A stretch of DNA of 64,000 bases from Candidatus Micrarchaeota archaeon (lineage in GTDB: Archaea > Micrarchaeota > Micrarchaeia > Anstonellales > Bilamarchaeaceae): contig WJMN01000047.1 in the NCBI GenBank assembly GCA_014727925.1, positions 41,833-105,832 on the forward strand, written 5' to 3'. A program made the position numbers and the translations under genes. A model generated the notes under the pieces. The model saw only the letters and a program-made list of their open reading frames with translations. It did not search any database and was not told where the DNA came from. This document shows, in pieces, positions 38,936 through 43,413 of this stretch (position 1 is the stretch's first letter; every line of letters starts with the position of its first letter).

Positions 38936-41299
38936 ATGAAAGATGTTCTTTGGTTTGAAGAATTAGACAAGGGCAGCCTTGCTGAGGCAGGGGGAAAAGG
39001 TGCAAACCTAGGAGAGATGCTGAAGGCAGGCTTTCCCGTGCCCCCGGGCTTTGTAACCACAAGCGGGGCTTATTTCAAGCACCTAGAGCAAAACGACCTC
39101 ACAGAAAAAATAACCGAAATGCTCTCCGGCCTGGATGTAGATGACACTGCAAAGCTTCAGGAAACCGCGGAGAGGATACAGGAATTGATTATTGAAGGGG
39201 AAACGCCCCCGGAACTTGAAGCCAAGATAAAAGAAAACTACCAGAAGCTCTGCCAGATGCGCGGAGAAGAAGAGGTTTATGTTGCGGTGCGCAGCTCTGC
39301 AACTGCAGAAGACCTTCCGGGCGCATCTTTTGCAGGGCAGCAGTCCACCTTCCTCAATATCCATGGCCCTGATGGGGTGGTGAAGGCAGTTAAGGAATGC
39401 TGGGCATCGCTTTTTACTGCCCGTGCAATATTCTACAGGGAGCAGAATGATTTTGATCATATGAAGGTGGGCCTTTCCGCGATAGTCCAGGAGATGGTCC
39501 AGAGCGAAAAGGCAGGAGTCATGTTCTCCGTAAACCCGGTAAGCAACAGGAGGAGCGAGCTGATGATTGAGGCTGCTTACGGGCTTGGCGAAGTTGTGGT
39601 TTCCGGCTCGGTAACACCTGATACTTATGTGGTGGACAAAGACAGCTTTGAAATCCTCAAAAAAGATATTGCGAAGCAGACATGGATGGTAATGAAGCAC
39701 AAGGGGGAGAATGCAAAAGCAGAGATAAAAGACGAGATGCAGGATAAGCAGAAACTGCCGGATGAAGATATTGTGGAGCTTGCGAAATTAGGGGTGAAGC
39801 TTGAGGAGCATTATGAATTTCCCCAGGATGCGGAGTGGGCATATGCGAATGGCGAAATTTACATCGTGCAGTCCCGCCCCATCACTACTCTTACTGAAGA
39901 AGAGCTTCCCGGGCCCTCTGAGCCGGAGGAGATGGAGGAAAAGGACGAGCCTTCGGAAGCAGAGGTTATGCTGCGCGGCTTGGGCTCATCCCCCGGATTC
40001 GGTACAGGAAAAGTCGCCCTGCTTGAAAGCGCAAAGGATATTTCCAAGATGCCTCAAGGGGCAATACTTGTTACGGACATGACCACACCCGATTTTGTCC
40101 CTGCAATGAAAAAGGCAGCTGCAATTGTTACAAACACGGGCGGAATGACTTCGCACGCAGCAATTGTGAGCAGGGAACTGGGAATTCCCTGTGTTGTGGG
40201 AACCCAGCGTGCCACGGATATGCTGAAGGAGGGCATGGATGTCACGGTTGATGGAACACATGGAATAATTTACAAGGGAAAAGTGGCACTCGGAGAGCCA
40301 AAGCCAGCAGGAGAGTCAGCGCCCGCACCCTCTGCTTATGAAGCCCCGGTAACAGGCACAAAGATTTACGTAAATCTTGCAGAAGCAGACCTTGCGGAAA
40401 AAACCGCCAAGCTCCCTGCAGATGGAATAGGGCTCCTCCGTGCAGAGTTCATGATTGCGGATATGGGTGAGCATCCCCGCAAGATGTATGAGGACGGAAG
40501 GGAAAACGAATTCATAAACAAGCTTGCAGAAGGGATGCGGCGCTTTGCATCTGCGTTCTATCCCCGCCCGGTTGTTTACCGCACCACCGATTTCAAGACC
40601 AACGAGTACCGCAACCTGAAGGGAGGGGGGGAATACGAGCCTGAAGAAGCAAACCCCATGATGGGATATCGCGGCGCGGCGCGCTACATAAACGAGCCAG
40701 AAGTTTTCAAGATGGAGCTCAAGGCAATCAAGAAGGTGCGCAATGAACTCGGCCTCACAAACCTCTGGATGATGGTGCCGTTTGTGCGCCGTATTGGCGA
40801 GCTCCGCGCAATCAAGGACATGATGCGCAAGGTTGAACTCTATCAGACCAAGGATTTCCAGCTCTGGATAATGGTTGAGGTTCCGAGCACAGTGATGCAG
40901 ATAGATGAGTTCTGCGAGGAAGGAATTGATGGGATTTCCGTAGGCACCAACGACCTGACTCAGCTGATGCTCGGCATAGACAGGGACAACGCAACCCTTG
41001 CAAAAGGCTTTGATGAGCGCAATAATGCAATCTACCGCGCGCTTGAGCGCGTAATCAAAACCACCCGCAAGTATGGGATTACATCCTCGCTTTGCGGGCA
41101 GGCCCCCAGCGTTTACCCCACGTTTGCGGAGAAACTCGTAGAATTTGGAATCACCTCTATGAGCGTGAACCCGGATGCGGTTGAGCGCACCAGGAAGATT
41201 GTGGCTTCGGCGGAGCAGAAAATGACCCTTAAGTATCTCCGGGACATACGCGAGGGAAACAGGTACAGCGGCCCTGAAGAAACCCGTGAGCGTGATTAG
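38936..41299 (+). CDS. ppsA: Phosphoenolpyruvate synthase
   Basis: N-terminal MKDVLWFEELDKGSLAEAGGKGANLGEM, phosphohistidine domain TNTGGMTSHAAIVSRELGIPCVVG, C-terminal PEP-utilising TIM barrel. The ORF-track TTG start at 38906 was replaced by the ATG at 38936. Confidence 0.95.
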   Translation: MKDVLWFEELDKGSLAEAGGKGANLGEMLKAGFPVPPGFVTTSGAYFKHLEQNDLTEKITEMLSGLDVDDTAKLQETAERIQELIIEGETPPELEAKIKENYQKLCQMRGEEEVYVAVRSSATAEDLPGASFAGQQSTFLNIHGPDGVVKAVKECWASLFTARAIFYREQNDFDHMKVGLSAIVQEMVQSEKAGVMFSVNPVSNRRSELMIEAAYGLGEVVVSGSVTPDTYVVDKDSFEILKKDIAKQTWMVMKHKGENAKAEIKDEMQDKQKLPDEDIVELAKLGVKLEEHYEFPQDAEWAYANGEIYIVQSRPITTLTEEELPGPSEPEEMEEKDEPSEAEVMLRGLGSSPGFGTGKVALLESAKDISKMPQGAILVTDMTTPDFVPAMKKAAAIVTNTGGMTSHAAIVSRELGIPCVVGTQRATDMLKEGMDVTVDGTHGIIYKGKVALGEPKPAGESAPAPSAYEAPVTGTKIYVNLAEADLAEKTAKLPADGIGLLRAEFMIADMGEHPRKMYEDGRENEFINKLAEGMRRFASAFYPRPVVYRTTDFKTNEYRNLKGGGEYEPEEANPMMGYRGAARYINEPEVFKMELKAIKKVRNELGLTNLWMMVPFVRRIGELRAIKDMMRKVELYQTKDFQLWIMVEVPSTVMQIDEFCEEGIDGISVGTNDLTQLMLGIDRDNATLAKGFDERNNAIYRALERVIKTTRKYGITSSLCGQAPSVYPTFAEKLVEFGITSMSVNPDAVERTRKIVASAEQKMTLKYLRDIREGNRYSGPEETRERD

Positions 41300-41406
41300 C
41301 CCCCTCTTTCTTCCTTTTTCTTCTTTCCAAACCGGATGTTCCCAGACCTCCTGATTCCCCCAAGCTATGTATATGCTTTTTTTTCTTTTCTATCCCTTTC
41401 AATAGT

Positions 41407-41578
41407 ATGAAAATCCTGCTGCAGTTTCCCGATCTGTTTCATCTTGCGATGAAATCTCGTGAAACTTTATACTGCAAAACAAGGGTGAGCCCATGAAAAT
41501 CCTGCTGCAGTTTCCCGATCTGTTTCATCTTGCGATGAAATCTCGTGAAACTTTATACTGCAAAACAAGGGTGAGCCC
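41407..41578 (+). repeat. Tandem direct repeat, 2 x 86 bp, duplicating the dph2 promoter plus the first 26 nt of dph2
   Basis: Units 41407-41492 and 41493-41578 are identical. Each starts with ATGAAAATCCTGCTGCAGTTTCCCGA (identical to the dph2 start at 41579) and contains a TTTATA box about 24 nt before the next ATG. Each unit encodes a 29-codon ORF (MKILLQFPDLFHLAMKSRETLYCKTRVSP) whose TGA overlaps the next ATG. Confidence 0.9.
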
Positions 41579-42490
41579 ATGAAAATCCTGCTGCAGTTTC
41601 CCGAAGGACTCAAGAAAAATGCACTTTCCGAAGCCCAAAAACTAGAAAAGGAAGGCCAGGAAGTTTACCTTTCCTCTTCTGCATGCTACGGAGCCTGTGA
41701 CCTCCCCATGGAAGAGGCATCAGCCTTGAATATAGACAAACTGATTCATTTTGGCCACTCCCAGTTTATACGCACGAGCCTTCCATTCCAGGTTGAATAC
41801 CGCGAATATTATGCACATCTAGATGTGGAAAAGCTGGAGGGCGCACTCTCCTTCCTTGAAGGAAAAGAGCGTATTGTGCTGGTAACAACAGTGCAGCACA
41901 TTCCCCAGCTGGAGCAGGTGAAATCCTTCCTGGAAAAAGAAGGCAAGGAAGTGCTCATTGGGAAGGGCTGCTTCACCGCGCACCCTGGCCAGGTTCTCGG
42001 GTGCGATCCAACCGCTGCAACATCTGTTTCTGAAAATGCAGATGCAATCCTTTATGTAGGCGATGGCAAATTCCACCCAACCGGAATCCACTCTGATCTC
42101 CCTGTATTCTCCCTCAATCCCTCTTCTGGGCAATGCAGGCAGGTAAATGATGAAATAGAGAAAATACGCAAAAGGAAGAAGGGCAGGATGCTCAAGGCCC
42201 TAGAGTGCAAGGTTTTCGCAGTTCTCCTTTCTACCAAGCCAGGGCAGTTCTGCCCGGAAGTTGCGCGTGAGGCAAAAAGGAAGCTCCAGGATGCAGGCTT
42301 TGCTGCAGAAATCCTTGTCTCAAATGAGTTCAACCCTGTTTCCATCGGGAATTTCCCCCAGTTTGAGTGCTACATAAACACTGCCTGCCCCCGCGTTGAT
42401 GAGGATTCCGAGCTTTTTGACAAGCCCATTATAAATGCAGTGGACCTGGATGAGTTCCTAGAGCTCTATAATGAATCCGGTTCTGGCTAA
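41579..42490 (+). CDS. dph2: Diphthamide biosynthesis enzyme Dph2 (2-(3-amino-3-carboxypropyl)histidine synthase)
   Basis: MKILLQFPEGLKK...SACYGACDLPMEEA...IHFGHSQF matches the archaeal Dph2 N-terminal region. 303 aa with the three conserved Cys-bearing segments. Confidence 0.85.
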   Translation: MKILLQFPEGLKKNALSEAQKLEKEGQEVYLSSSACYGACDLPMEEASALNIDKLIHFGHSQFIRTSLPFQVEYREYYAHLDVEKLEGALSFLEGKERIVLVTTVQHIPQLEQVKSFLEKEGKEVLIGKGCFTAHPGQVLGCDPTAATSVSENADAILYVGDGKFHPTGIHSDLPVFSLNPSSGQCRQVNDEIEKIRKRKKGRMLKALECKVFAVLLSTKPGQFCPEVAREAKRKLQDAGFAAEILVSNEFNPVSIGNFPQFECYINTACPRVDEDSELFDKPIINAVDLDEFLELYNESGSG

Positions 42491-42555: not shown

Positions 42556-43413
42556 ATGGGATTGATACTCAGTATCATAGACCACATCGAGCGTTTGGAG
42601 ATGGACCCTGCCTTAAGGGCAGAGAGGGGCCCGCGCACCCCTGAAGAACTCCGGCAGCATATTGCTGATTTTTCCAGGGGCTTGAACACACCCGAATTCT
42701 ACACCGCATGCACCCATTTCTACTCTATGCCAAGAGTTCAGGCAGTCCCCGCACTTATTTCAGCATTGGAAAACCTCCACCCAAAAATAAAACAGAGTGC
42801 CGCAGTTATGCTTAGCCTGTTTGATGCGCGAGAGGCAATCGGCCCAATAATTGGAATTTTTAAATCAGATGTTTTCACAGTAAGATATGCGGCAATCTGC
42901 ACGCTTTTCTGGTTTGGAAAAACAGCGATACCCAGCCTGTATAAAAACACCCTAAAAACAAAATCTTCAAAAATTGCAGTAGATTCACTGGCTACTCTCC
43001 TGGCCATTGCAGCATATGCCCCGCGTAGTTATAATGCCGGTTCCGAATGCCTTCTTAATGGAAATCCCCTAACAATTGCTGATCGAAGATCGACTGTGGA
43101 GCAGATGTCTTCCTGGATTATCCACGACCGCACAGTGGAAGCACAGGCTATTTTTTCAGAGGTTAATAGTGGCCCGCGCAAGGAATCTTCTTTTCTTAAT
43201 GTTCTAAAAAGGCACCTGGACGACGCACAACTGATTTTTATAGGAAAGCAGATAAACCGGGCCCTTGTGCCTGAGCCTGAAGAAAAACTGCCGAGACCCA
43301 GGGTGCTGAGGCCGGATTTTAAGCGCTCCAGAACGAGGATTCCGCGCAACCTTCCCAGGAAACAATCTTCTGCCCTGGCTTATCTGAGAAGAGGCCCAAC
43401 CAACAAAACTTAA
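42556..43413 (+). CDS. HEAT-repeat (PBS-lyase-like) protein
   Basis: Repeated helical hairpins (PALISALENLHPKIKQSAAVML..., VRYAAICTLFWFG...). Confidence 0.45.
   Translation: MGLILSIIDHIERLEMDPALRAERGPRTPEELRQHIADFSRGLNTPEFYTACTHFYSMPRVQAVPALISALENLHPKIKQSAAVMLSLFDAREAIGPIIGIFKSDVFTVRYAAICTLFWFGKTAIPSLYKNTLKTKSSKIAVDSLATLLAIAAYAPRSYNAGSECLLNGNPLTIADRRSTVEQMSSWIIHDRTVEAQAIFSEVNSGPRKESSFLNVLKRHLDDAQLIFIGKQINRALVPEPEEKLPRPRVLRPDFKRSRTRIPRNLPRKQSSALAYLRRGPTNKT

Follow-up and report, generated by a model that had tools for sequence, protein, structure and literature searches.

A tandem leader module copied from the start of dph2 in Micrarchaeota

Coupled genes, leader ORFs and the dph2 locus

Overlapping pairs of open reading frames (ORFs) whose stop and start codons share an ATGA or TGATG sequence have been shown by experiment, in Haloferax volcanii and E. 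coli, to be strictly coupled through termination-reinitiation, with a variable contribution of the Shine-Dalgarno (SD) sequence (Huber et al., 2019; PMC6728339). Here we describe a leader module that joins such overlaps to a covarying RNA helix in front of dph2, in a 64,000-nucleotide stretch of Candidatus Micrarchaeota DNA (hereafter the window, meaning the whole stretch analysed). Two identical 86-bp units precede dph2 in the window, and each begins with a copy of the first 26 nt of the gene itself. Comparison with other dph2 loci indicates, with high confidence, that this repeat represents two copies of an old, conserved dph2 leader module of Micrarchaeota, and that the module is a real element under selection.

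The units resemble the overlapping ORF pairs in being co-directional with the ORF that follows, in their 4-nt ATGA/GTGA or 1-nt TGATG overlaps, in placing the downstream SD inside the upstream ORF and in having a first ORF without an SD. They differ in that the upstream partner is a leader ORF of 28–43 codons that partially copies the gene's own start, and in carrying a covarying helix across the downstream start in an arrangement that can be stacked in tandem. With the leaders of ermC (ErmCL) and of cat and cmlA (PMC5499644) the module shares a short leader ORF, a helix at the downstream ribosome-binding region, potentially mutually exclusive helices and a partly conserved leader peptide. Its leader ORF is under selection and its helix (P2, below) encloses the SD and AUG, which it would occlude; a selected alternative helix that opposes occlusion was not found among the units. 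Unlike in those leaders, the leader stop overlaps the next start, the helix targets codons 6–9 and not the SD, the host is archaeal, the leader peptide repeats the N-terminal residues of the protein whose gene follows and no inducer is known. Leaderless short-ORF attenuators of mycobacteria, which head polycistronic mRNAs and sense cysteine through poly-Cys codons (bioRxiv 10.1101/834739), resemble the module in their first small ORF, which here is probably leaderless or devoid of an SD and by its translation would control the gene that follows on that transcript. The present module differs from them in having no run of codons for a single amino acid, in being tandemly repeated and in being tied to dph2.

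In structure-mediated coupling, as between the coat and replicase genes of RNA phage MS2 and in many bacterial operons, a start codon is held in a long-range helix that upstream translation opens. The downstream start of the module is proposed to be held in the same way with upstream coding RNA, but the upstream strand is supplied by a dedicated mini-ORF that stems from the gene. In the bypassing gene 60 of phage T4, coding sequence is duplicated around a gap of about 50–60 nt, with a hairpin adjoining the upstream copy and an SD-like element ahead of the downstream one. The duplicated start, gap, hairpin and SD-like element of the module follow a matching layout. However, no stop follows a take-off codon (codon 8 or 9), the whole gap is open frame up to the start overlap, and the proline codons differ between the copies (CCC/CCG/CCA) at three loci (L027, L080 and L081). 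We therefore rejected bypass of this type, and the module is not a member of that class.

The array at 41407–41604 has a period of 86, 2.3 copies, 100% matches and no indels (Tandem Repeats Finder score 396), and is by far the strongest repeat within the window. The units occupy 41407–41492 and 41493–41578, and the first 26 nt recur at 41579–41604, where they open an ORF of 303 amino acids (41579–42490) that encodes Dph2 (PF01866 Diphthamide_syn, E=9.9e-69). Both units encode MKILLQFPDLFHLAMKSRETLYCKTRVSP in upstream ORFs (uORFs) of 29 codons: the TGA of uORF1 (41407–41496) at 41494–41496 overlaps the ATG of uORF2, and that of the identical uORF2 (41493–41582) at 41580–41582 overlaps the ATG of dph2. 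Both the perfect 86-bp duplication and the two overlapping 29-codon uORFs had been described in the initial annotation, and are confirmed by Tandem Repeats Finder, by reading of the sequence and by the ORF list.

Within the first unit, the copy of the dph2 start (41407–41432) is followed by a hairpin, P1 (41437–41454; TTTCATC-TTGC-GATGAAA, a perfect 7-bp stem), by a motif, M (41455–41467; TCTCGTGAAACTT), and by an SD, AGGGTGA (41482–41488), 4 nt ahead of the uORF2 ATG. M is antisense to codons 6–9 of the next ORF and would form the 5′ strand of the helix P2, its partner in uORF2 being AGTTTCCCGA at 41509–41518. In the second unit, P1 is copied at 41523–41540 and the SD, again AGGGTGA, lies at 41568–41574, 4 nt ahead of the dph2 ATG. 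M at 41541–41553 is there the 5′ strand of a predicted P2 that spans the dph2 start, with its 3′ strand in codons 6–9 of the gene itself (41595–41604, again AGTTTCCCGA). All of these features lie on the plus strand.

Occurrence of the unit among Micrarchaeota

We compared dph2 loci from species-representative genomes, JGI (Joint Genome Institute) metagenomes and contigs encoding close Dph2 relatives, and related them through a neighbour-joining tree of Dph2. The layout of the first 26 nt of dph2, a spacer of about 60 nt and dph2 itself was found at ten Micrarchaeota loci, which hold 15 units of diverged sequence (14 distinct, the two window copies being identical). The parts of the unit are the first 26 nt of dph2, hairpin P1, motif M and a GGTG SD. 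Dph2 of the unit-bearing loci is 46–87% identical to that of the window. Two units are present in the window, in L003, in L082, in L027 (Dph2 46% identical to the window's) and in L074–L077, which are three Logan run assemblies and one NCBI assembly of the same lineage, all four identical to each other. A single unit is present in L073, the closest relative of the window (Dph2 87% identical), in L004, in L026 (49%), in its closest listed relative L080, and in L081, a relative of L027. The initial annotation had proposed comparing copy number among related genomes; zero, one or two units per dph2 were found among the relatives. We further note that the spacer sequence is conserved across lineages whose Dph2 shares 46–49% identity.

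A covariance model built from nine units separates the module clearly from other sequence, with units scoring 57–133 bits and everything else at most 31 bits; dph2 starts without a unit reach 17–21 bits from the coding start alone. Neither this model nor motif searches found a further unit in the window or in about 290 kb of loci. Duplication of a gene's own start upstream of it is also specific to dph2: among 1,719 candidate starts, the only other case is an unrelated one on the minus strand of L041 (at about 3382), where the first 24 nt of a gene recur in frame 171 nt upstream with 21/24 identical positions. A general genome habit of start duplication was thus rejected. A known RNA family or riboswitch was not found with the Rfam 15 covariance models, which gave no gathering-level match in the window; the matches in 41250–41700 are chance-level and on the minus strand (E at least 0.69, at most 20 bits vs cut-offs of 45–75). 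Candidates for a leader-only version, with motif and SD but no ORF copy, were also rejected, the strong duplexes between upstream and coding sequence at L022, L040, L047, L031 and further loci being unrelated G-rich or terminator sequences.

These comparisons bear on whether the array exists at all, since a repeat expanded by an assembler in a genome with one unit or none could look the same. The window comes from a metagenome-assembled DPANN archaeon with a single contig on record, the identical Dph2 protein being found on one NCBI 'Candidatus Micrarchaeota' contig of a metagenome-assembled genome (MAG), and no independent assembly was found in the collections. The perfect 198-bp array is also longer than typical short reads, so that its exact copy number could be wrong. 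We nevertheless regard an artefact, which the initial annotation had listed among its explanations, as extremely unlikely, and for the architecture it is ruled out. The same succession of 26-mer, 60-nt spacer and 26-mer is present at nine other loci from different projects and assemblers, and the four independent assemblies L074–L077 agree on two diverged units. A junction of spacer, 26-mer and spacer would moreover need at least two units, as a one-unit genome repeats only 26 nt.

Units are lacking from the close relatives L001, L078/79 and L083 and from about 40 other lineages. On the Dph2 tree the unit-bearing lineages form three clades with unit-less sisters interleaved, and L078, without a unit, is sister to L082, with two. 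In L001 the sequence that precedes uORF1 in the window directly precedes the dph2 ATG. The window unit shares its sequence class with the single unit of L073 and with the first units of L074 and L003. The simplest history that the sequences suggest is an ancient module with frequent precise loss and change of copy number, and a recent duplication from one to two units in the lineage of the window. The 100% identity of the copies, first read as a sign of very recent duplication, fits such an origin for the second copy but not for the module, which is ancient. The 26-nt direct repeats around the spacers would let the array grow or shrink through unequal recombination or slippage, and this would account both for the recent identical second copy here and for the precise loss of the module in close relatives.

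A probable decayed unit was seen at 592–654 of L018, a sister to L027, ahead of a dph2 that has no intact unit. Its 26-mer is 19/26 identical with ATG changed to ATC, P1 is deleted, a partial motif and a GGTGG SD are kept, and the covariance model gives 31.5 bits. A different repeat, a perfect 121-bp tandem duplication of 2.0 copies, lies within the dph2 coding sequence of a distant relative (L052, 2737–2979). As 121 is not a multiple of three it would shift the frame. It is absent from the related L055, and may reflect a misassembly or a disrupted gene.

In the window, dph2 is flanked by a phosphoenolpyruvate (PEP) synthase gene upstream and by a HEAT-repeat protein gene and purC downstream. 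The gene between dph2 and purC varies: it encodes the HEAT-repeat protein in the window (42556–43413), L073 and L074, the HEAT-repeat gene is absent from the interval in L078 (2449–3324), and a HAD-family hydrolase is encoded there in L082 (1273–1968). The PEP synthase gene upstream in L080, an NCBI MAG contig, contains a run of N at about 894–937.

Frame, helices and peptide within the units

The reading frame through the spacer is preserved without exception. The units measure 83, 86 (eleven units), 89 and 128 nt (two units), all of them 2 mod 3, and the indels between them (−3, +3 and +42 nt) keep the frame; in a subset that we call class 2 units, a −1 indel in the P1 loop is offset by a +1 indel later in the unit. 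No stop interrupts frame 0 in any of the 14 distinct units, whereas shuffled spacers leave it open in 16–41% of cases, and both alternative frames contain stops in most units. Thirteen of the 15 stop/start overlaps are ATGA, with one GTGA (L004) and one TGATG (second unit of L082). In most units an SD of the GGTG or GAGT type lies 4–8 nt before the downstream start, inside the upstream ORF; a GGTG-type SD also stands ahead of 20/55 gene starts in the window, for example that of purC. The first uORF lacks an SD at nine of the ten loci, and AT-rich, TATA-like boxes lie 20–45 nt upstream of it. The retention of frame, length, overlap and GGTG-type SD in 15 units at ten loci gives strong comparative support to termination-reinitiation, an idea already raised from the window alone.

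Hairpin P1 starts 4–6 nt past the 26-mer and is formed by nine different complementary pairs of arms across the units: TTTCATC/GATGAAA, TTTCATC/GATGACA (first unit of L003, with one mismatch), AGTGAAC/GTTCACT, AGAAATC/GATTTCT, TTTGAAC/GTTCAAA, TTTGAACGA/TCGTTCAAA, TTTGGTC/GACCAAA, CTTCGA/TCGAAG and TTGCCCGA/TCGGGCAA. Six of its eight base pairs have changed on both sides among units. The 42-nt insertions in the second units of L074 and L082 fall within the P1 loop and leave the stem intact. Motif M follows directly 3′ of P1 (UCUCGUGAAACUG in the clade of the window, UCUCCAGAAAUUG in L027, UUCGUGGAAUUG in L080). Because M is conserved while being read in two different frames among units (KSRE vs LLVK), it is constrained as RNA and not as peptide.

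M is antisense to codons 6–9 of dph2 (CAGUUUCCCGA) and could thus pair with either the upstream or the downstream 26-mer. The duplex with the downstream copy is stable in every unit (−9.0 to −16.5 kcal/mol), and that with the upstream copy drops to −2.3 (first unit of L003) and −3.1 (first unit of L027), where the upstream 26-mer has diverged, and to −6.1 (L081), −7.3 (L073) and −7.6 kcal/mol (first unit of L074). Given whole units with the next start, RNAalifold chose P1 together with the pairing of M to the downstream copy, with 8/19 pairs compensatory. Across the 14 distinct units, P1 and P2 are 92.5% paired and P2 alone 96.1% (97.5% in an earlier test of P2 on 11 units), and in ten pairs, four of them in P2, both partners have changed (36 cells). 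The covariation score of P1 and P2 is 0.364 vs 0.128 in shuffled alignments (0/500 as high), and sliding the partner by 1–3 columns reduces pairing to 29–52%. The compensatory changes in P2 follow synonymous changes in the downstream ORF, pairing CAG/CAA with C/U, CCC/CCG with G/C and UUU/UUC with A/G. The pairing of M with the upstream copy reaches 90.9% but is no better than in shuffles (74/500 for pairing, 98/500 for covariation), and is available because the two 26-mers resemble each other. These results favour the downstream 26-mer as the partner of M.

With the upstream 26-mer omitted, P1 and P2 make up the single-sequence minimum free energy (MFE) fold in 12/15 units; in the remaining three, the AUG itself is covered by pairing of the 5′ part of M. 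P2 closes a loop of about 39 nt that holds the SD and AUG, with its strands at about −35 to −23 and +14 to +26 from the start. Both positions fall within the footprint of an initiating ribosome, and a formed P2 would be expected to block initiation.

Small perfect hairpins were also seen in some relatives. They occur in arrays of 4–6 (stems of 6–8 bp, loops of 3–5 nt) in intergenic sequence upstream of the dph2 promoter, in L004 (about 2686–2850), in L074 (about 1138–1225, also in L075–L077) and in L082 (about 1–60), often after TCTC or TCTG; no such block is present at 41300–41365 of the window. The two 42-nt insertions in P1 loops (L074, 1410–1455; L082, 219–262) each consist of two such hairpins, and one hairpin of L004, TCTCGTGAAC-GAA-GTTCACGA, resembles motif M. 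Membership of P1 in a genome-wide family of mini-hairpins was considered and rejected, such hairpins not being enriched in the window (18 observed vs about 13 expected).

These patterns of conservation also address the possibility that the unit is a selfish or neutral, recombination-prone repeat without a role in expression. A fold-back or template switch would have created the inverted copy (M) and the direct copy (the 26-mer), the cassette would spread by homologous recombination on the 26-mer, and quasi-palindrome correction of DNA would keep the arms matched. In keeping with this, M matches the reverse-complemented end of the 26-mer at 10/11 positions, the units are patchy on the Dph2 tree with unit-less sisters beside two-unit lineages, recombination has left its mark in identical 26-mers within loci and in a chimeric first unit of L082, and precise loss restores an intact gene, as in L001. 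Such a repeat would not, however, be expected to keep frame 0 open and, despite three independent indels, every length at 2 mod 3, nor to preserve the SD spacing and the stop/start overlap in every unit. The covariation is specific to the downstream partner across a loop of about 39 nt, the spacer is conserved between lineages with Dph2 only 46–49% identical, and L018 shows how a unit decays once constraint is lost. We consider a selfish or neutral repeat of this kind clearly unlikely.

The initial annotation had also taken each unit for a dph2 promoter, so that three stacked promoters could raise dph2 transcription. The TTTATA that it placed about 24 nt before the next ATG is indeed seen in each unit of the window. 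At that position the relatives read CTGCATAC, CTGCGTAC, TTGTTCAC, TTGTCCAT or TTGCCCTG, and because TTTATA is missing from all of them the unit as a promoter is not supported. What is conserved in the units is the ORF, the two helices and the SD. Moreover, the sequence shared with unit-less relatives, which presumably contains the genuine promoter, is situated 5′ of the first ATG. This region (41366–41406) has an AT-rich TATGTATATGC at 41366–41376, then a pyrimidine-rich tract, and no SD before the first ATG; it is homologous to the sequence just upstream of the dph2 ATG in unit-less L001 and to the region before the first uORF in L074, L004 and L082. On this sequence evidence it is probably the true promoter, with a very short leader.

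In the window, substitutions from GAAACTGCATAC to GAAACTTTATAC at 41461–41476 and 41547–41562 create the TATA-like box, CTTTATAC, which is preceded by GTGAAA, resembling a B recognition element (BRE). The same substitutions drop the G-C pair that ends P2, leaving the weakest P2 among all units. A box before each downstream ATG coupled to a weakened P2 makes a lineage-specific internal promoter conceivable in the window. A duplicated promoter is not what the module is in general, and promoter amplification as the explanation of the repeat appears very unlikely.

The uORFs begin with the N-terminal peptide of Dph2, and the pattern of change fits their translation. Over codons 2–8, 38 synonymous and 6 nonsynonymous changes separate the uORFs from the gene copy at their own locus, compared with a random expectation of about 25% synonymous; all seven third positions vary but only one of the seven second positions. 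L081 alone has six synonymous and no nonsynonymous differences, and the first unit of L027 five and none. The N-terminus MKILLQFP is thus conserved as an amino-acid sequence. This can be read in two ways: either the nascent peptide itself matters in the uORF, or genuine gene starts have, through conversion or recombination, repeatedly overwritten the uORF 26-mers. Gene conversion clearly occurs, because the window copies and the first units of L026 and L074 are identical to their own gene copies; the second unit of L074 differs from its gene copy at four synonymous sites.

If the peptide matters, the uORF could act as a sensor in regulated attenuation. MKILLQFP(D/E), with P1 at the entry channel during decoding of Pro-Asp, would cause a conditional pause that shifts a series of exclusive helices, in which each M (M1, M2) pairs with the 26-mer on either side of it (26a, 26b and 26c in order: 26a:M1, M1:26b, 26b:M2, M2:26c), thereby exposing or shutting the dph2 start. 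A possible signal is the condition of the translation machinery itself, for example EF2 without diphthamide. The Pro codon is followed by P1 at a distance of 5–6 nt, both neighbouring 26-mers are possible partners of M and the MFE folds alternate between them, the 38 synonymous vs 6 nonsynonymous changes agree with a peptide under constraint, and leaders of the ErmCL type act through such pausing (PMC5499644). Dph2, furthermore, modifies EF2, and loss of diphthamide alters translational fidelity and raises −1 frameshifting (PMC6193676, PMC8449394). Against this, the helix of M with the upstream copy has no covariation support and is weak or lost in the first units of five loci, no ligand or stall site is recognisable in the sequence, no slippery heptamer is conserved and most units have stops in both the −1 and the +1 frame, and the peptide conservation could stem from gene conversion with the real gene start. 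Attenuation of this kind is therefore unlikely in our view.

Programmed −1 frameshifting was rejected as a candidate in its own right. Although the spacing between UUU CCC and P1 would suit such a site, G UUU CCC does not qualify as a slippery heptamer. In the clade of the window the −1 frame is closed by a UGA within M, and it is open only in L026 and L080.

A proposed ribosome relay and its meaning

Taken together, the open frame, the stop/start overlaps, the SD placement and the covarying P2 suggest that the module works as a ribosome relay, in which starts locked by P2 are opened only by ribosomes arriving from the preceding uORF, which then reinitiate. We hold this reading with moderate confidence. 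The 5′-most ORF, with no M upstream and usually no SD, would be free to initiate, probably on a leaderless transcript or one with a very short leader, and every later start, including that of dph2, would be clamped by P2. A ribosome translating the preceding uORF would melt P2 as it passes M, terminate at the AUGA overlap and reinitiate with help from the SD. Chained modules, of which zero, one or two are seen, would make Dph2 synthesis depend on, and scale with, the number of reinitiation steps, and unequal recombination between the 26-mers would retune the output.

Several observations weigh against the relay. Many close relatives, among them L001, L078 and L083, do without the module, which is therefore dispensable. 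P2 keeps the SD and AUG within its loop of about 39 nt and does not pair them directly. In the window itself, the identity of the three 26-mers means that every M forms a local duplex with the upstream 26-mer of its unit in the MFE fold, with the dph2 start left open, and the window version of M (GAAACTT, with CTT and not CTG) gives the weakest P2 of all units, at −9 kcal/mol. Finally, nothing in a pure relay would require the uORF to start with the N-terminal peptide of Dph2.

A further reading would join the relay to the function of the enzyme and make the module an autoregulatory sensor, in which passage at P1 and Pro-Asp, restart at the AUGA and opening of P2 all depend on the state of EF2. 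We consider this decidedly improbable. If it were true, Dph2 synthesis would be coupled to the need for diphthamide, and the module would be the first cis-acting feedback device for an enzyme that modifies a translation factor, and DPANN archaea would have their first described conserved regulatory leader.

The components of the proposed relay are of known kinds, namely a uORF, a termination-reinitiation overlap and a start-occluding helix. Their combination appears to be new, as we did not find it described in Rfam or in the searchable literature. The same sources yielded no description of a cis-regulatory RNA or leader-ORF device for DPANN archaea or for any diphthamide gene. To our knowledge, few such devices are known in archaea as a whole. 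The apparent novelty lies in a module that can be stacked and precisely excised, that derives from a copy of the gene's own start and is dedicated to dph2 in Micrarchaeota, and that has a covarying clamp across the next start. Its comparative signature, with covarying helices, constrained frame and length, and stop/start overlaps, is unusually clear. Its modular, precisely excisable design would explain why copy number differs between close relatives.

The locus also carries a caution for annotation: where a MAG shows a perfect repeat of this kind at the start of a gene, the repeat should be neither collapsed nor discarded as an artefact. The module shows that a uORF can mimic the N-terminal part of the main ORF, and it offers a natural system for the study of archaeal termination-reinitiation and start-site occlusion. 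Since EF2 is the substrate of the enzyme under regulation, translation and diphthamide synthesis could be linked by feedback.

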